IMG/VR virus record: IMGVR_UViG_2627853983_000001 | Direction: 5' to 3' (one strand) | Origin: a virus | Lineage: Duplodnaviria > Heunggongvirae > Uroviricota > Caudoviricetes | Length of the DNA stretch: 30,082 bases | In this document: one piece after another, positions 11,309 through 18,348 of the stretch | How the letters are laid out: each line of letters opens with the position of its first letter | Position numbering within the stretch: position 1 is the first letter of the stretch | Position numbers and translations under genes: made by a program | The notes under the pieces: generated by a model | What the model saw: the letters and a program-made list of their open reading frames with translations, nothing else | What the model was told of the DNA's origin: nothing | The model's database searches: none

Positions 11309-13574
11309 AGCCTCCGGGCGTTTTGTCCCTCCGTCAGCATTTACCGCAGGCACCGGTAAGGCGTTTACCGGTGCTTATGCATGGAACGCGCCACGCGAGG
11401 CTGTCGGGCGCGAAAGACCTCTTACACGTGACGAGATGCGTCAGGTGCAAGGTGTTTTATCCACGATTAACCGCCTGCCTTACTTTTTGCGCTCGCTGTT
11501 TACTTCACGCTATGACTACATCCGGCGCAATAAAAGCCCGGTGCACGGGTTTTATTTCCTCACATCTACTTTTCAGCGTCGTTTATGGCCGCGCATTGAG
11601 CGTGTGAATCAGCGCCATGAAATGAACACCGACGCGTCGTTGCTGTTTCTGGCAGAGCGTGACCACTATGCGCGCCTGCCGGGAATGAATGACAAGGAGC
11701 TGAAAAAGTTTGCCGCCCGTATCTCATCGCAGCTTTTCATGATGTATGAGGAACTCTGCGATGCATGGGTGGATGCGCATGGTGAAAAAGAATCGCTGTT
11801 TACGGATGAGGCGCAGGCTCACCTGTATGGTCATGTTGCTGGCGCTGCACGTGCTTTCAATATTTCCCCGCTCTACTGGAAAAAATACCGTAAAGGACAG
11901 ATGACCACGAGGCAGGCATATTCTGCCATTGCCCGCCTGTTTAACGATGAGTGGTGGACTCATCAGCTTAAAGGCCAGCGTATGCGCTGGCATGAGGCGT
12001 TACTGATAGCTGTCGGGGAGGTCAATAAAGACCGTTCTCCTTATGCCAGTAAACACGCCATTCGTGATGTGCGTGCGCGCCGCCAGGCAAATCTGGAATT
12101 TCTTAAATCGTGTGACCTTGAAAACAGGGAAACCGGCGAGCGCATCGACCTTATCAGTAAGGTGATGGGCAGTATTTCTAATCCTGAAATTCGCCGGATG
12201 GAGCTGATGAACACCATTGCCGGTATTGAGCGTTACGCCGCCGCAGAGGGTGATGTGGGGATGTTTATCACGCTGACCGCGCCGTCAAAGTATCACCCGA
12301 CACGTCAGGTCGGAAAAGGCGAAAGTAAAACCGTTCAGCTTAATCACGGCTGGAACGATGAGGCATTTAATCCAAAGGATGCGCAGCGTTATCTCTGCCG
12401 TATCTGGAGCCTGATGCGCACGGCATTCAAGGATAATGATTTACAGGTCTACGGTTTGCGAGTCGTCGAGCCACACCACGACGGAACGCCGCACTGGCAT
12501 ATGATGCTTTTTTGTCATCCACGCCAGCGTAACCAGATTATCGAAATCATGCGTCGCTATGCGCTCAAAGAGGATGGCGACGAAAGAGGAGCCGCGCGAA
12601 ACCGTTTTCAGGCAAAACACCTTAACCGGGGCGGTGCTGCGGGATATATCGCGAAATACATTTCAAAAAACATCGACGGCTATGCACTGGATGGTCAGCT
12701 CGATAACGACACCGGCAGGCCGCTGAAAGACACTGCAGCGGCTGTTACCGCATGGGCGTCAACGTGGCGCATTCCGCAATTTAAAACGGTTGGCCTGCCG
12801 ACAATGGGGGCTTACCGTGAACTACGCAAATTGCCTCGCGGCGTCAGCATTGCTGATGAGTTTGACGAGCGCGTCGAGGCTGCACGCGCCGCCGCAGACA
12901 GTGGTGATTTTGCGCTGTATATCAGCGCGCAGGGTGGGGCAAATGTCCCGCGCGATTGTCAGACTGTCAGGGTCGCCCGTAGTCTGTCGGATGACGTTAA
13001 CGAGTACGAGGAAGAAGTCGAGAGAGTGGTCGGCATTTACGCGCCGCATCTCGGCGCGCGTCATATTCATATCACCAGAACGACGGACTGGCGCATTGTG
13101 CCGAAAGTTCCGGTCGTTGAGCCTTTGACTTTAAAAAGCGGCATCGCCGCGCCTCGGAGTCCTGTCAATAACTGTGGAAAGCTCACCGGTGGTGATACTT
13201 CGTTACCGGCTCCCACACCTTCTGAGCACGCCGCAGCAGTGCTTAATCTGGTTGATGACGATGTTATCGAATGGAATGACCCGGAGGTCGTGAGGGCGCT
13301 CAGGGGCGCATTAAAACACGACCGGAGAACGCCAAACCGTCAGCAAAGAAACGGAAGCCCGTTAAAACCGCATGAAATTGCACCATCGGCCAGACTGACC
13401 CGGTCGGAACGATTGCAAATTACCCGTATCCGCGTTGATCTCGCTCAGAACGGTATCAGGCCGCAACGATGGGAGCTTGAGGCGCTGGCGCGTGGCGCGA
13501 CCGTAAATTATGACGGGAAACCTTTCACTTATCAGGTCGCTGATGATTGGCCGGGATTTTTGTTACCCATTTGA
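11298..13574 (+). CDS. A: Rolling-circle replication initiator A (HUH endonuclease)
   Basis: Start set at MAVKASGRF... (tracked ORF starts 14 codons earlier). Contains HUH-type motif PHWHMMLF and tyrosine motif GYIAKYISK; collinear with recalled P2 A. Confidence 0.92.
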   Translation: MAVKASGRFVPPSAFTAGTGKAFTGAYAWNAPREAVGRERPLTRDEMRQVQGVLSTINRLPYFLRSLFTSRYDYIRRNKSPVHGFYFLTSTFQRRLWPRIERVNQRHEMNTDASLLFLAERDHYARLPGMNDKELKKFAARISSQLFMMYEELCDAWVDAHGEKESLFTDEAQAHLYGHVAGAARAFNISPLYWKKYRKGQMTTRQAYSAIARLFNDEWWTHQLKGQRMRWHEALLIAVGEVNKDRSPYASKHAIRDVRARRQANLEFLKSCDLENRETGERIDLISKVMGSISNPEIRRMELMNTIAGIERYAAAEGDVGMFITLTAPSKYHPTRQVGKGESKTVQLNHGWNDEAFNPKDAQRYLCRIWSLMRTAFKDNDLQVYGLRVVEPHHDGTPHWHMMLFCHPRQRNQIIEIMRRYALKEDGDERGAARNRFQAKHLNRGGAAGYIAKYISKNIDGYALDGQLDNDTGRPLKDTAAAVTAWASTWRIPQFKTVGLPTMGAYRELRKLPRGVSIADEFDERVEAARAAADSGDFALYISAQGGANVPRDCQTVRVARSLSDDVNEYEEEVERVVGIYAPHLGARHIHITRTTDWRIVPKVPVVEPLTLKSGIAAPRSPVNNCGKLTGGDTSLPAPTPSEHAAAVLNLVDDDVIEWNDPEVVRALRGALKHDRRTPNRQQRNGSPLKPHEIAPSARLTRSERLQITRIRVDLAQNGIRPQRWELEALARGATVNYDGKPFTYQVADDWPGFLLPI

Positions 13575-13832
13575 GTAAAAATACAGCGTGATTTTATATG
13601 TCTTTGAATGGATTATGCGAAACACCTCTAAGGTAGATGAGGAGCAATAGCGTGTTGAATCAGAAGGCTAAATTGTATTGAATCGTTAGCATGTAATTGA
13701 AGGCAGCTATTTGATTCGAGTCATAAAAGAGCATCTATTTCGGTTAATAAAACCATTGCGAGTGACTTTATGTCGAAGCATAATTCATCTCGAGCGAAGT
13801 CTTGCTAGTCTTTCATCGGATTGATGACGGGC

Positions 13833-13869
13833 GCAAAAAAACCACCCTGGCAGGTGGTTTTTTTGTTTG
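13833..13869. terminator. Bidirectional rho-independent terminator (A-run, ACCACC-loop-GGTGGT stem, T-run)
   Basis: AAAAAAACCACCCTGGCAGGTGGTTTTTTTG; it can terminate the early operon from the left and the minus-strand small ORF from the right. Confidence 0.65.
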
Positions 13870-13876
13870 AAGCATA

Positions 13877-13990
13877 CTAAAGAAAAATACTTACATGGAT
13901 ATTACTGACGTTTACTGACAAACCACTCGGACTACCATATGGATAGCCAAAGAGGGCCAGAACGAGAATGCAGTAATAGCACTTCTTCAT
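13877..13990 (-). CDS. Candidate small protein, 37 aa (MKKCYYCILVLALFGYPYGSPSGLSVNVSNIHVSIFL), hydrophobic N-terminal half
   Basis: Not in the ORF track because it is under 60 aa. AGGAGG Shine-Dalgarno 4 nt before the ATG; stop codon 7 nt from the bidirectional terminator. Coding status unproven. Confidence 0.35.
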   Translation of the reverse strand: MKKCYYCILVLALFGYPYGSPSGLSVNVSNIHVSIFL

Positions 13991-14646
13991 ATCGCCTCCT
14001 GTAAGCAGAGGGCAATTTCCGCCGATATATGCGCTTCTAAGGCGGAGTGACTATTGAGCGAAGTCTTGCCCTGAAATAATGCTCTGTTTAAACGCAAAGT
14101 GATCTGGCATATCACCGAACAGAGGACCTGAACAACACAACATATAGTATGTCGTTGTTTCTGGTTGCATTTTATGTTGTGTAATACTGGTTTTGCATCA
14201 AGGATGTTTGAGCTTTTTTTGATATAGCTCAAAGTAAAAAGCAGAGACTACGGATGATAAGGTCTTGAAAGCAATGTAAATTTTTTAAAGTTGTGAGTGG
14301 CTAGAAATGCACAGTTTCAATATGGCGGATTTAAACAAGTAATTAAAAATAGCGACATAAATTCCAATAAAATCATTAAGTTGCGTTTTCTGTGGAAACT
14401 TCGGTGACTCTGAAATTTTCTTTTAGTATCGCTGAGGTTTAACAACTCGCTGCGCAAGTAGTTAGTGTTTTTTTAACTCAATATTCTGATTTATAAGGTT
14501 TTTTATAAAACGTGGGCTGGTTGCGCGTATTCATCTCGTGTTATCAGCAAAGATAAGCTCTATATGCAGAACTGAATGCATATATGATGTCGAAAATGTT
14601 ATGGGAAAACGTGGATTAGTGTTATAGTAATGGCTGAAAAACAGCC

Positions 14647-14675
14647 TTGACATAAAATAACAGCTGTGATATGGC
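14647..14675 (+). promoter_or_regulatory. Sigma70-type promoter for the ImmA-like gene (TTGACA, 17-bp spacer, TGaTATGGC extended -10)
   Basis: Perfect -35 hexamer at 14647..14652, TGn plus TATGGC at 14667..14675, about 35 nt upstream of the AGGAGG Shine-Dalgarno and ATG 14712. Confidence 0.5.
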
Positions 14676-14711
14676 TGTGCATACTTAACTTTTTTAACGT
14701 AGGAGGCAACC

Positions 14712-15197
14712 ATGAGCTATGCAGCTAAAAAACTGCTTGACCGCTATTGGGATCGCCGACTACCTGTCGATCCGTTTAAGCTTGCTAAAGCGTGGGGTGC
14801 TCGTGTTGAAGCACTTGAGGAATCGGCTTATAACAACGATGGGTTAAGCGGTCTGGCTGTCATCAAAAAGGGTGTCCATAGGATTTATTTTGATTCTAGT
14901 GAACATTCTAATCGTCAACGTTTTACTGTTGCACACGAGTTAGGTCATCATGTGCTGGGGCATACCCAGGACGGAGAGTACCATCGGGATAATGTCGGGA
15001 ATTATTCAACAGGTGCTCGTGATTACCGTGAGGTTGAAGCAAACAAGTTTGCTGCTGAGTTGTTAATGCCTGAGTCTGCTATACGTCAATTGGTATCCAG
15101 AGAAGGTATTGATAGCACTTTGAGATTAGCAAGCATCTTTAATGTATCAGAAGCCGCTATGCATTGGCGCTTAAAGAGCTTAGGAATGGCTTATTAA
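14712..15197 (+). CDS. ImmA/IrrE-family zinc metallopeptidase (COG2856 / DUF955-like), HEXXH motif
   Basis: 161 aa with FTVAHELGHHVLGH (HEXXH) and downstream EANKFAAELLMPE, the pattern of ImmA/IrrE peptidases. Strong Shine-Dalgarno GTAGGAGG. No adjacent HTH partner ORF. Confidence 0.75.
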   Translation: MSYAAKKLLDRYWDRRLPVDPFKLAKAWGARVEALEESAYNNDGLSGLAVIKKGVHRIYFDSSEHSNRQRFTVAHELGHHVLGHTQDGEYHRDNVGNYSTGARDYREVEANKFAAELLMPESAIRQLVSREGIDSTLRLASIFNVSEAAMHWRLKSLGMAY

Positions 15198-15222
15198 TTA
15201 GCCTTTAACTTTTAACCTGTTT

Positions 15223-15263
15223 AAAATCACCTTTACGTTTGTACATGTAAGGGTGATTTTTTT
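15223..15263 (+). terminator. Terminator-like hairpin (AAAATCACCTTTAC / GTAAGGGTGATTTT) with T-run, overlapping the RBS of the next gene
   Basis: 13-14 bp stem with one mismatch, loop GTTTGTACAT, followed by TTTTTTT ending 1 nt before ATG 15264. Confidence 0.55.
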
Positions 15264-15863
15264 ATGGCTGATATTGATTTATCTGGACAGTCCCCAGAGC
15301 AAGGAACCACTCCTAAGGGCGATTTAGATCCTGATATCCTTATAAGGCGAGATAGACGGGATGGTATAGAGCGTAGAAGTATGCGATTAGTGCTCTCTGC
15401 CGTTGTGCTTTGTTTTGCTTGTACATTTCTATGGCAGGGGCTTAACTTTGCTTTGGCTGTTGGAAATGGCTTGCTGGAAGCGAAAAGCAGTATTGCCGCA
15501 GCGATAACACAAAAAGTAGATACACAAACTTGTGTTTCAGCAGAAAAATGTTCTGCTTTATCTTCGGATCCGAAGATGGCTGATGAGAGGATAACACCAT
15601 CTTCAGACACTAATAAAGTTAGAAAATCTATTTCTGGTTTATCCACCGATTGGTTATCGGCCAGTTCTCTAATAGCTATTGTTGCATTCATCCTTGGTGT
15701 GGGTTTAACTTTGCTTTTGACTCTTCTTAAATCAGCATTTCAACACCCGACAGATAAAGACTTTAGAACAAAGTCGACATCTAATACTATTGAGTTGGCC
15801 ACGCCAATCAGTGAATTAATAATTGGTGTTCTGAATATAATTAAAGACAAACTATCTAAGTAA
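15264..15863 (+). CDS. Predicted two-pass membrane protein of unknown function
   Basis: 199-aa ORF with two hydrophobic segments (LVLSAVVLCFACTFLWQGLNFALAV and LIAIVAFILGVGLTLLLTLL) flanking a Ser/Thr-rich loop; convergent terminator downstream. The overlapping minus-strand ORF 15233..15691 is the alternative reading. Confidence 0.55.
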   Translation: MADIDLSGQSPEQGTTPKGDLDPDILIRRDRRDGIERRSMRLVLSAVVLCFACTFLWQGLNFALAVGNGLLEAKSSIAAAITQKVDTQTCVSAEKCSALSSDPKMADERITPSSDTNKVRKSISGLSTDWLSASSLIAIVAFILGVGLTLLLTLLKSAFQHPTDKDFRTKSTSNTIELATPISELIIGVLNIIKDKLSK

Positions 15864-15904
15864 AGCATTAGTTGTGATTTTTTATTGGTTTTAGTGATAA
15901 TACA

Positions 15905-15938
15905 TCTCCAGTACTTATTGTTACTGGAGAGTATTTTT
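15905..15938. terminator. Convergent terminator between the membrane-protein gene and the 313-aa minus-strand gene
   Basis: Stem TCTCCAGTA / TACTGGAGA, loop CTTATTGT, followed by GTATTTTT; 15 nt from the minus-strand gene stop. Confidence 0.6.
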
Positions 15939-15945
15939 AGTCGTT

Positions 15946-16887
15946 TTATATTTTTAATGTTAGTGAATGATATTCACGAGAGTTCACGTTCGATGTGATG
16001 TAATCGGGGGCGTTAACACCAAGAATCGCAACGAGTAATCGGCAAATTAAAGCCTGCATTTGTTGTAATATGTCATCTCCATATTGATAATTGTTAATAG
16101 TGGTAAAGCCAAGTGGTTGACCATGAAACATAGCTTCATGAAAGTTTTCATTGCGGATGTTTGTAATGTTTTTTTTGCCTGTAACCCATGATGGTCGTGG
16201 TATTCCATAAGTTTTGCAGATCCACTTCAAGCGCCTGGAGTGATTTAGAGTCTTTTCTGTACACTTGTTCTTTTCTGCCCATGTTAAAGCAAAGCAACTA
16301 TCCAGTGCCATGTAAAGATACTGGAATTTTTCGAAGCTAAGGTATTGTGGGTTTTGGGATAAAAATAGTGCATGCACTATTGCTGCTATATTTATTGGTG
16401 CGTGTTTGGTTTTTGTCTCGCTAGACATGTATTTGAGTGCTAATTCTATAACCTCTTTTTCAGAGCACTTGACCAGAATAAAGTCAGTTAATTTGCTGGG
16501 TTTTATTGGGGTTGCGTCTAAAAAACCGGCATCAGTAGTTGTTAATCTTATCCCTTTGAAAAAAGACAGACACCACACAGCAAAATTGAGAGTTTCTAGT
16601 GAAGATGTATTTTTTAATTTTAGTGAGTGTGTTTTGGGTAAGCCAAATACTCGTTGGCTAAAAGGCATTGTGGATATGCCTCCATTGAGGTTATATACTT
16701 CTTGGTTTCCTGGGTATATCCAACCGTTAATAACATTTCTGTGATTGTTTATAAGATTTGTTTTTTCCGCCAGACCGGGTAAAGTAAGTAAAGAAAAATC
16801 ATCAGTTTCAACGTTAACTTCTACTGGATAGTATCCAAACTCAGCTTCAATATCATTGGATTGCTGTTCGTCAACTTTACCTTGCAT
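15946..16887 (-). CDS. Hypothetical 313-aa protein with HEPN-like RNxxxH motif (RNENFH, residues 245..250); candidate abortive-infection RNase
   Basis: Long ORF in the AT-rich island with GGAG Shine-Dalgarno 6 nt upstream. The RNENFH motif was verified on the DNA (minus strand of 16138..16155). The fold assignment is inferred from the motif only. Confidence 0.7.
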   Translation of the reverse strand: MQGKVDEQQSNDIEAEFGYYPVEVNVETDDFSLLTLPGLAEKTNLINNHRNVINGWIYPGNQEVYNLNGGISTMPFSQRVFGLPKTHSLKLKNTSSLETLNFAVWCLSFFKGIRLTTTDAGFLDATPIKPSKLTDFILVKCSEKEVIELALKYMSSETKTKHAPINIAAIVHALFLSQNPQYLSFEKFQYLYMALDSCFALTWAEKNKCTEKTLNHSRRLKWICKTYGIPRPSWVTGKKNITNIRNENFHEAMFHGQPLGFTTINNYQYGDDILQQMQALICRLLVAILGVNAPDYITSNVNSREYHSLTLKI

Positions 16888-16905
16888 ACATTGCTCCGGT
16901 CAAAA

Positions 16906-16933
16906 ATAGGCTCGATAATTCTCGTAAGCCTAT
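16906..16933 (-). promoter_or_regulatory. Leader hairpin plus U5 tract (terminator/attenuator-like) immediately upstream of the RBS of the 313-aa gene
   Basis: On the minus strand: ATAGGCTTACGA-GAATTA-TCGAGCCTAT followed by TTTTT, then GACCGGAGCAATGT-ATG. Confidence 0.45.
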
Positions 16934-17124
16934 CATGTTCGCAAAGTATCCATACCTGTGGATTTTGTAAATTTAAGTTGATTTGTCATTAAATAAGCCG
17001 TTGCATGCAACAAGTGAATGTTTTTGCATGCGTCGGGGATGTCCGTTCAGGCTGCGTGCGGTCAGGACTGGTGCGGATCCATAGTATCTATGCAACTGCA
17101 TTAAAACCGCCCCATGAAGCGGGC

Positions 17125-17143
17125 GGGCGAGGCGGGGAAAGCA
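17125..17143. other. cos: cos site (19-nt cohesive end sequence GGCGAGGCGGGGAAAGCAC)
   Basis: Exact match to the P2 cohesive-end sequence as I recall it, in the expected position just beyond the portal gene Q. Confidence 0.75.
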
Positions 17144-17284
17144 CTGCGCGCTGGCGGTGGTGCTGATTTTATTTTTTCAGCGTCTGAGCGCGTCGTGATG
17201 GCGTTTAGATTGTGCGCCGGGGCGTTGGTGTGTCTGCGGGCTGTTTTGTGCGGTGGTGAGTGTGTGAGGGCGTGATGACGGGCT

Positions 17285-17313: not shown

Positions 17314-18348
17314 TCAGCCGTTGTCAGTGTCCAGTGAGTAGTTTTTAAAGCGGATGACCTCCTGACCGAGCCAGCCGTTTATCTCGCGGATCCTGTCCTG
17401 TAACGGGATAAGCTCATTGCGGACAAAGACCTTTGCCACTTTCTCAATATCACCCAGCGACCCGACGTTCTCCGGCTTGCCGCCCATCAACTGAAAGGGG
17501 ATGCGGTGCGCGTCCAGCAGGTCTGCGGCACTGGCTTTTTTGATATTAAAAAAATCGTCCTTCGTCGCCACTTCACTGAGCGGGATAATTTTAATGCCGT
17601 CGGCTTTTCCCTGTGGGGCATAGAGAAACAGGTTTTTAAAGTTGTTGCGGCCTTTTGACTTAACCATGTTTTCGCGGAGCATTTCGATATCGTTGCGATC
17701 CTGCACGGCATCAGTGACGTACATGATGTATCCGGCATGAGCGCCGTTTTCGTAATACTTGCGGCGGAACAGCGTGGCTGATTCATTCAGCCAGGCAGAG
17801 TTAAGGGCGCTGAGATATTCCGGCAGACCGTACAGCTCCTGATTAATATCCGGCTCCAGCAGGTGAAACACGGAGCCGGGCGCGAAAGGTGTCGGCTCAT
17901 GGAAGGACGGCACCCACCAGTAAACATCCTCTTCCACGCCACGGCGGGTATATTTTGCCGGTGAGGTTTCCAGTCTGATGACCTTACCGGTGGTGCTGTA
18001 ACGCTTTTCCAGAAACGCATTACCGAACACCAGAAAATCCAGCACAAAGCGGCTGAAATCCTGCTGGGAAAGCCACGGATGCGGGATAAATGTCGAGGCC
18101 AGAATATTGCGTTTGACGTAAATCGGTGAGCTGTGATGCACGGCAGCACGCAGGCTTTTTGCCAGACCGGTAAAGCTGACCGGTGGCTCATACCATCTGC
18201 CGTTACTGATGCACTCGACGTAATCCAGAATGTCACGGCGGTCGAGTACCGGCACCGGCTCACCAAAGGTGAATGCCTCCATTTTCGGGGCGCTGGCGGT
18301 CATTTTTTTTGCCGCAGGTTGCGGTGTTTTCCCTTTTTTCTTGCTCAT
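17314..18348 (-). CDS. Q: Portal protein
   Basis: 344-aa ORF; P2 Q length and position next to cos. Confidence 0.92.
   Translation of the reverse strand: MSKKKGKTPQPAAKKMTASAPKMEAFTFGEPVPVLDRRDILDYVECISNGRWYEPPVSFTGLAKSLRAAVHHSSPIYVKRNILASTFIPHPWLSQQDFSRFVLDFLVFGNAFLEKRYSTTGKVIRLETSPAKYTRRGVEEDVYWWVPSFHEPTPFAPGSVFHLLEPDINQELYGLPEYLSALNSAWLNESATLFRRKYYENGAHAGYIMYVTDAVQDRNDIEMLRENMVKSKGRNNFKNLFLYAPQGKADGIKIIPLSEVATKDDFFNIKKASAADLLDAHRIPFQLMGGKPENVGSLGDIEKVAKVFVRNELIPLQDRIREINGWLGQEVIRFKNYSLDTDNG

Follow-up and report, generated by a model that had tools for sequence, protein, structure and literature searches.

What does the AT-rich DNA between gene A and the cos site of a P2-like element encode, and do its genes work as one system? 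The question arises from a stretch of 30,082 nucleotides (nt) from a virus of the Caudoviricetes (IMG/VR record IMGVR_UViG_2627853983_000001; this whole stretch is referred to below as the window), in which an island of ~3.5 kb interrupts the phage backbone. A preliminary description, made from the letters of the DNA, had read the island as a single undescribed defense module composed of a peptidase, a membrane protein, and a HEPN-like protein. The reading that we favor, and consider rather probable, is that three cassettes, each mobile on its own, have been stacked in the P2 gpA-cos hotspot, with phage exclusion or element maintenance as the probable role of each. The island and its main parts are as follows.

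13575..17124, unstranded: AT-rich cargo island between gene A and cos, delimited by the GC profile
13580..14340 (approximate), unstranded: cassette 1, conserved, ~760-830 bp long, without any gene annotated in RefSeq
14712..15197, plus strand: cassette 2, 161-amino-acid (aa) ImmA/IrrE-type (M78) zinc metallopeptidase (Pfam PF06114), without a helix-turn-helix (HTH) or sensor domain
15264..15863, plus strand: cassette 2, 199-aa membrane protein with two transmembrane helices (2TM protein), from the open reading frame (ORF) and an alignment of 27 homologs
15905..15930, unstranded: bidirectional hairpin terminator between the convergent cassettes 2 and 3, from a terminator scan of both strands
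15946..16887, minus strand: cassette 3, a single 313-aa protein that stands alone; N-terminal alpha/beta domain, probable C-terminal HEPN-like domain with R245-N-x3-H250

The three ORFs and their domain calls (ImmA/IrrE-type peptidase, two-helix membrane protein, and HEPN-like 313-aa protein with an RNxxxH motif) hold up from the preliminary description, as does its view of the island as horizontally acquired cargo at a known P2 hotspot between gpA and cos/Q, a locus where defense functions are experimentally established (PMC9122126; PMC9519451). What does not survive is the single module, because diverged copies of its parts occur apart and the first 0.8 kb is a further, independent cassette.

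The case for separate cassettes is one of distribution. The whole island is present in 46 of 5426 complete Escherichia coli genomes, and copies at least 99% identical occur in 47 genomes for the peptidase and 2TM gene pair and in 47 for the 313-aa gene; these near-equal counts indicate one clonal haplotype. Diverged copies have other associations. In ~50 further E. coli genomes, the 313-aa gene, at ~78% nucleotide identity, lies in P2 hotspots beside different neighbors (DinI-like and small hypothetical genes in one, DUF3850 in another), and in the P2-EC67 record, it stands beside ORF73 and ORF226. Homologs in Pseudomonas, Aeromonas, and Acinetobacter stand alone. A 56%-diverged 2TM protein, together with an 88%-identical peptidase, fills E. 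coli P2 hotspots that have no 313-aa gene, and that gene is likewise missing from every other context examined for the pair. Cassette 1 was found in 150 of the 5426 E. coli genomes, with no annotated gene within it in any of them. Strains EC2641 and BroCaecum-55 have no other cargo between A and Q, and in a prophage of E. coli W, it is followed by PD-T4-4 (A 2.1e-112, B 1.2e-15; L005:5658-7656), a validated defense system. Thus, this unannotated cassette combines with different downstream defense cargo.

Parts of the island have been catalogued before, so that the word “undescribed” was too strong. The hotspot was defined by Rousset et al. (2022; PMC9122126), whose curated set comprises 169 “systems,” among which Table S5B gives the 313-aa protein as system #11 (218 occurrences) and Peptidase_M78 with “2 TM in protein 2” as system #21 (148 occurrences); Table S5A holds loci with exactly the accessions of the island, the proteins being identical or near-identical. 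DefensePredictor Table S10 (2026; PMC13092281) lists WP_001161722.1, which is identical to the 313-aa protein, as a “Predicted novel defense gene” with a mean log-odds of 9.68. Both sources provide a listing or a score only; they do not analyze the domains of the 313-aa protein, and neither mentions cassette 1. As far as the available part of Table S2 of PMC9122126 goes, systems #11 and #21 are absent among the cloned systems, and the cloned sequences of Rst_3HP, a three-hypothetical-protein system of the P2 hotspot that we considered as a candidate, do not contain these proteins. Within the available part of Table S8 of DefensePredictor, none of the tested sequences has the motifs of the 313-aa family, which also sets aside its HEPN-bearing DS systems; the sequence of one of the candidates, DS-40, is unrelated. 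Scans with PADLOC, Pfam, and NCBIfam assigned the island to no named defense system, as had been expected from the sequence. Specifically, PADLOC v2 returned 0 families at E up to 1 for the 2TM and 313-aa proteins, from a library that has PD-lambda, PD-T4, HEC, and PDC models and was not checked for the Rousset P2/P4-hotspot systems, and a PHROGs search matched unnamed families only.

The unannotated cassette 1 is the least expected part of the island. Its components are listed here.

13877..13990, minus strand: 37-aa hydrophobic ORF MKKCYYCILVLALFGYPYGSPSGLSVNVSNIHVSIFL, candidate type I toxin, with Shine-Dalgarno sequence GGAGG
13834..13865, unstranded: bidirectional intrinsic terminator, common to the small-ORF mRNA and the candidate small RNA, with a perfect 13-nt inverted repeat between A and T runs
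13791..13866, plus strand: candidate antitoxin small RNA (sRNA) of ~75 nt, its start placed from promoter-like hexamers and its end at the terminator
13792..13805, plus strand: seed GAGCGAAGTCTTGC inside the candidate sRNA, an exact 14-nt direct repeat of 14056-14069
14056..14069, minus strand: predicted sRNA target in the 5' leader of the small ORF, 66-79 nt upstream of the AUG

A possible 37-aa gene had been suggested from the sequence, and there are in fact two ORFs of this length. The one on the minus strand (13990..13877) is coding: 11 distinct aligned copies differ at 13 sites, of which 10 are third codon positions, and just three amino-acid changes are seen, a bias that identifies it as a real gene. 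The one on the plus strand (13711-13824) accumulates replacements in the same alignment and is not supported as coding. In two relatives, the 81-aa ORF that lies upstream of this gene is broken. Using tblastn, we found full-length homologs of the 37-aa ORF (60%-65% identity) on 392 Klebsiella and Enterobacter plasmids, all of them unannotated. The plasmid copies keep its length, start, stop, and Shine-Dalgarno sequence, and their terminator is almost identical to that at 13834-13865.

The candidate sRNA is preceded by a promoter-like site (TTGCGA-17-CATAAT, 13756-13784, plus strand) and has a predicted fold of -31.9 kcal/mol (z -4.3). Its seed, GAGCGAAGTCTTGC, has two sites only in the window at up to two mismatches (the mean for shuffled sequences is 0.26, and 1 of 100 reaches two). 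Because the second site is at 14056-14069, the candidate sRNA is complementary to the leader of the small ORF. The best predicted sRNA-mRNA duplex anchors there too, at -40.1 kcal/mol, compared with -29.7 ± 3.2 for shuffled sequences, of which 2 of 500 are as good. Both seed copies are unchanged in four aligned relatives, except for a C-to-T change in the first copy in two of them, with which a G-U pair is still possible. In the plasmid copies, seed and target are extended to 17 nt at the same positions, and in two of the three plasmid loci inspected, the flanks have diverged around a preserved Shine-Dalgarno sequence, terminator, pair of promoter hexamers, and pair of seed copies. In the third, from Klebsiella pneumoniae (CP137446.1), the insertion sequence (IS) ISKpn34 (L045:1284-2404) ends ~97 nt upstream of the small ORF (2501-2611). 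It replaces the promoter side and the leader with its seed target and leaves the sRNA-side copy intact, which looks like inactivation of the toxin side.

On another K. pneumoniae plasmid, NZ_CP065834.1, there is an Rfam match to AgrB (L043:1569-1656; 45.1 bits, gathering threshold 40) ~850 nt upstream of the homolog of the 37-aa ORF. AgrB is the antitoxin sRNA of the DinQ type I system, and two small-RNA/toxin modules may be clustered on this plasmid.

By its layout, cassette 1 resembles a trans-acting type I toxin-antitoxin system. A long structured mRNA from the minus strand would encode a 37-aa membrane-targeting peptide, and the convergent sRNA of ~75 nt would use its 14-nt seed to bind the leader, ~70 nt before the start codon, and so keep the peptide silent. 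Should this unstable RNA be lost, the peptide would be released. Standby-site repressors such as IstR-1 use the same leader position. Trans-acting type I systems (TimP/TimR, TisB/IstR-1, ZorO/OrzO, RalR/RalA) are like cassette 1 in having a small ORF of ~37-41 aa with an N-terminal signal-like hydrophobic stretch, and, as predicted for cassette 1, a neighboring sRNA with its own promoter and terminator that is complementary over 14-17 nt to the 5' leader of the toxin and not to its ORF. In cassette 1, it should be noted, promoter, sRNA, and pairing are predictions.

TimP/TimR is the nearest analogue. TimP is a 38-aa protein with an N-terminal signal-like stretch, repressed by a neighboring sRNA that binds its 5' leader (PMC7667032). 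However, the sRNA of TimP/TimR is divergent and upstream, whereas that of cassette 1 is convergent and downstream, and TimP/TimR occupies a fixed chromosomal site, whereas cassette 1 is carried by P2-like prophages and large plasmids. Membership in this system was considered and rejected: the RyfA model (RF00126) gave no match at E up to 1, and BLASTP produced no alignment to the TimP of strain K-12. A common N-terminal pattern, M-x-x-x-C-x-C-I-(V/L)-(L/V), can be seen in the 37-aa family and K-12 TimP (L046:2002-2127), with the two cysteines of the plasmid homologs at the TimP positions; given the lack of a BLASTP alignment, this is a lead only. Pfam, PADLOC, and NCBIfam contained nothing for the 37-aa peptide, which also matches no known type I toxin family. 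A search against Rfam at a permissive threshold gave sub-threshold matches only, driven by the terminator. In the literature, we found no publication on cassette 1 and nothing for the peptide sequence.

Cassette 2, an operon of two genes, pairs a small protease with a membrane protein. The peptidase matches PF06114 at 75.6 bits (cut-off 22; E 3.8e-21), its best PADLOC model is capP (E 1.1e-30), and its closest solved structure is CapP 7t5t (E 7.6e-7). The translation, aligned to CapP, has a zinc site at H75-E76-L-G-H79 and a downstream E109-A-N-K-F-A-A-E-L-L-M-P. The 2TM protein, which has no Pfam, PADLOC, or NCBIfam match, begins with a disordered and variable tail rich in Pro, Gln, and Ser, followed by a conserved ERRxMR before helix 1. 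It has two long helices, a loop with two conserved cysteines, and a C-terminal amphipathic helix, and its second transmembrane helix is invariant (AFILGVGLTL..LK) among the 27 homologs. The AlphaFold2 model is a helical hairpin of moderate confidence (predicted local distance difference test, pLDDT, 65).

The two genes are constant partners. In seven of seven contexts, an M78 gene encoding 161-164 aa is followed immediately by the 2TM gene, with ~30-75 nt between them. The contexts, which span Enterobacterales, Vibrio, and Acinetobacter, are always mobile elements or variable regions: two E. coli P2 variants, a Serratia chromosomal islet 1.8 kb from RosmerTA, a Vibrio element between serine recombinases, an Acinetobacter element after a DUF927 primase, a Pectobacterium prophage end, and an Enterobacter plasmid region with DprA-like, Zeta-toxin, and HNH genes. 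None of the seven has an HTH gene next to the pair, and the island itself contains no HTH ORF. The possibility that an HTH gene or pseudogene had been overlooked ahead of the peptidase gene was rejected, given that the upstream ORFs are broken or nonconserved and the leader is not conserved outside E. coli.

A perfect TTGACA, read by eye at 14647-14652, lies upstream of the peptidase gene. The promoter that had been attributed to the island rests on this hexamer, and the claim was not borne out statistically, since a consensus scan found 13 promoter-like sites where 10.7 are expected in shuffled sequence, that is, no excess. An imperfect palindrome, ACAGCTGTGATATGGCTGT, follows the TTGACA (14647-14690), overlaps the presumed -10, and is partly conserved in the diverged E. 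coli variant. It may be an operator; the island encodes no repressor.

We infer that cassette 2 could be a protease-controlled membrane effector. The M78 protease, which has no HTH repressor partner of the usual kind, would process or control the 2TM protein, most likely at the disordered cytoplasmic tail, and the conserved second helix would then permeabilize the membrane, aborting infection. How does this compare with the known M78-based systems? CapH-CapP (a regulator associated with CBASS), ImmR-ImmA, and DdrO-IrrE include a zinc protease of the same family, but the solved CapP and IrrE chains are 291-301 aa long, and the island peptidase is only 161 aa. Moreover, CapH-CapP and ImmR-ImmA have an adjacent HTH substrate gene, whereas the pair in the island has neither such a gene nor a downstream regulated defense operon, and its constant partner is the 2TM protein; with no HTH gene, the defining feature of these systems is absent. 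RosmerTA (RmrT/RmrA) and PD-lambda-2 are toxin-antitoxin-like defense systems based on an M78 peptidase. RmrA and PD-lambda-2B are HTH-M78 fusions with an upstream toxin (PMC9519451). RmrA models do match the island peptidase (E down to 6e-17), but only in the peptidase part of the models (positions ~146-292); the island lacks the HTH, and its second gene is downstream, encodes a membrane protein, and has no match to RmrT, so that the architecture is not that of RosmerTA. In the same library, a true RmrT/RmrA pair from Serratia scores 8.5e-59 (RmrT) and 2.7e-145 (RmrA). That complete RosmerTA (L018:6463-8246) is 1.8 kb downstream of the Serratia M78 and 2TM pair, and this small islet, bounded by phn genes and a radical-SAM gene, thus holds two different M78-based modules.

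The 313-aa protein of cassette 3 belongs to a large family (603 matches in a word-indexed search, 652 clusters at 50% identity in an exhaustive one) found in Enterobacterales, Aeromonas, Acinetobacter, Pseudomonas, and Stenotrophomonas. Nearly all members are ~300 aa, and the matches are full-length. Across 32 sequences with identities as low as 26%, neither R245 nor H250 varies and N246 hardly does, in agreement with the R-x4-6-H motif; H87, E186, Y192, and R283 are invariant as well. The AlphaFold2 model (pLDDT 82) has an N-terminal alpha/beta domain, which is conserved over ~140 aa, and a C-terminal helical domain in which the motif region is the least confident part. There is no Pfam match for the query, 40 close homologs, or 10 distant homologs, no NCBIfam or PADLOC match either, and no significant Foldseek match of the model in the PDB or BFVD. 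Because Foldseek found no match and the motif region has the lowest confidence, the HEPN-like nature of the C-terminal domain, judged from the motif, is probable rather than proven. Two other leads were discarded: a profile of the family against PDB sequences gave ribonucleotide-reductase matches only, which are spurious, and one UniRef entry is named HEPN_Apea, a match that the Pfam scans of the query and its 50 homologs did not reproduce. Among known systems, stand-alone HEPN abortive-infection proteins (AbiV, the AbiD/F class; the HEPN domains of Csm6 and AbiA) come nearest, but no HEPN-family sequence model matches, and the N-terminal domain with its invariant H87 has no recognizable relative. 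In operation, the N-terminal domain would act as a sensor of infection that activates a HEPN-type RNase (RNxxxH) at the C terminus, and this RNase would cut RNA and stop growth.

The neighborhoods of homologs are informative as well. In P. aeruginosa, the gene is on an island resembling an integrative and conjugative element, a few kilobases from Gabija, and in Acinetobacter, it directly follows a DUF4238 gene, DUF4238 being a validated defense domain in the P2 hotspot (PMC9122126). In Aeromonas veronii (L039-L041:4684-6963), the homolog always follows a 403-aa AlkZ-like (PF06224) gene, at a distance of ~105 nt, among genes that are otherwise of the housekeeping kind, and these two genes may be a two-gene variant of the system.

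The boundaries of the island and the flanking backbone agree with the preliminary description in GC profile, ORFs, and cos match, and the three terminators proposed there were all found, as hairpins at 13834-13865, at 15905-15930, and near the right edge. The flanking features are these.

ORF end at 13574: gene A (backbone), annotated in RefSeq as replication endonuclease at the identical locus
17126..17144, plus strand: P2 cos core GGCGAGGCGGGGAAAGCAC, backbone and not cargo, a 19-nt exact match with 0 expected by chance
17126-17107, minus strand: third hairpin, near the right edge, from the terminator scan
17314-18348, minus strand: portal gene Q, from the ORF list and RefSeq, with the terminase gene next, also on the minus strand

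GC content is 0.33-0.44 over 13600-16999; the upstream flank has 0.51-0.57 and the downstream flank 0.51-0.59. Just past gene A, the sequence ceases to resemble that of other P2-like phages, the similarity is back at ~17083-17091, and the proposed right edge of the island is therefore correct to ~40 nt. A scan of the island for tandem repeats and retron- or ToxI-like arrays found none of these. Just left of cos, at 17047-17076, a 15-nt unit, TCAGGCTGCGTGCGG, occurs twice in tandem, in or near the conserved P2-like stretch that resumes at ~17083; it may be part of an extended cos/terminase recognition region.

Could the island nevertheless be one system, or have nothing to do with conflict between mobile elements? 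The presence of near-identical alleles of both gene sets together in 46 of 47 E. coli genomes speaks for an integrated three-gene system in which the peptidase, the membrane protein, and the HEPN-like protein act jointly, for example, as a protease-activated RNase and pore. We consider this very unlikely, because the linkage is that of one clonal haplotype, diverged 313-aa genes in P2 hotspots have DinI-like, DUF3850, or ORF226 partners and no peptidase, the pair elsewhere does without the 313-aa gene, cassettes 2 and 3 converge on a bidirectional terminator, and Rousset et al. curated the two sets as two systems. Scarcely more credible is the idea that the cargo consists of ordinary morons (serving host physiology or virulence) or decaying remnants. 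The hotspot does also hold partition systems and a cytolethal distending toxin (Rousset et al.; PMC9122126), but all of the island ORFs are intact, conserved across genera, and apparently under purifying selection, the neighborhoods of homologs elsewhere are defense-rich, and HEPN-like, M78, and small membrane proteins are what abortive-infection systems typically contain. Defense or abortive infection is still the most plausible role. Several points weigh against three defense or maintenance cassettes. Neither published screen (Rousset et al., DefensePredictor) has them among its tested systems, as far as the available parts of the tables go; about one-quarter of P2 hotspots hold nondefense cargo (PMC9122126); the substrate of the protease is a guess; and in cassette 1, the seed is identical in all homologs, so that pairing finds no proof in compensatory changes, a sigma-70 promoter can be read for the toxin mRNA only with a 15-nt spacer, and the hydrophobic stretch of the peptide is short (~13 residues).

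At the level of single cassettes, the main rival concerns cassette 2, which might be a toxin-antitoxin or addiction module, or might control lysogeny through an ImmA-like anti-repressor protease whose target is a repressor from another locus, be it of this prophage or a different one. Characterized ImmA, IrrE, and CapP proteases cleave HTH repressors, and the closest solved relatives of the peptidase are CapP and IrrE. Further, toxin-antitoxin-like pairs, RosmerTA and PD-lambda-2 among them, commonly include an M78 domain, and the pair of cassette 2 rides many kinds of mobile element. Yet in its seven contexts, an HTH gene never stands beside it and the membrane protein always does, which makes the membrane protein, not a repressor, the constant partner of the protease. 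We therefore see this role as possible but clearly the less probable one, and in any event, toxin-antitoxin and defense roles are not mutually exclusive. For cassette 1, one may ask whether it is a toxin-antitoxin system at all, or whether the ORF encodes a harmless membrane or exported peptide (for superinfection exclusion or signaling) and the 14-nt repeat is a protein-binding or other cis element. The signal-sequence-like character of the short hydrophobic stretch, the invariant seed, and the failure of any type I toxin family or Rfam model to match would fit. We nonetheless find it unlikely, because the whole layout (strong Shine-Dalgarno sequence, long conserved leader, convergent promoter and terminator unit, seed in the leader) fits trans-acting type I systems and is held between prophage and plasmid copies, and because the one plasmid copy that has lost its leader and promoter side to an IS has kept its sRNA side, as expected under selection against an unrepressed toxin.

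In summary, each cassette of the island is probably a variant on a known theme, respectively, a type I toxin-antitoxin system, an M78-protease system, and a single-protein HEPN effector. The nonstandard features are an unannotated toxin-antitoxin-like family of prophages and plasmids, a protease without a repressor partner, and a new N-terminal domain in the 313-aa protein. A bolder interpretation, which we put forward as speculative and doubtful, is that cassette 2 represents a new class of protease-gated membrane effector, in which a minimal ImmA/IrrE-type protease, no longer tied to the repressor that is its usual substrate, would itself be the direct sensor of infection and would cut its partner at the disordered tail, leading to membrane collapse, and that cassette 1 represents an unrecognized type I toxin-antitoxin family of P2-like prophages and hundreds of Klebsiella plasmids, a minimal anti-phage or anti-competitor module able to fill the hotspot alone. 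If our reading of the cassettes is true, there would be a widespread HEPN effector family across Gammaproteobacteria (the 652 clusters noted above) with a new sensor domain, and an M78 protease used without a repressor and with a membrane protein as its constant partner. There would also be a small-ORF/sRNA module, missed by standard annotation, that is at times the sole cargo of the hotspot and is common on clinically important Klebsiella plasmids. As gene-based hotspot surveys would score loci with cassette 1 only as empty, their defense or addiction content may be under-counted. The island also argues for caution in reading neighboring hotspot genes as one system, in that what appeared to be a three-gene unit is a clonal stack of separable cassettes.

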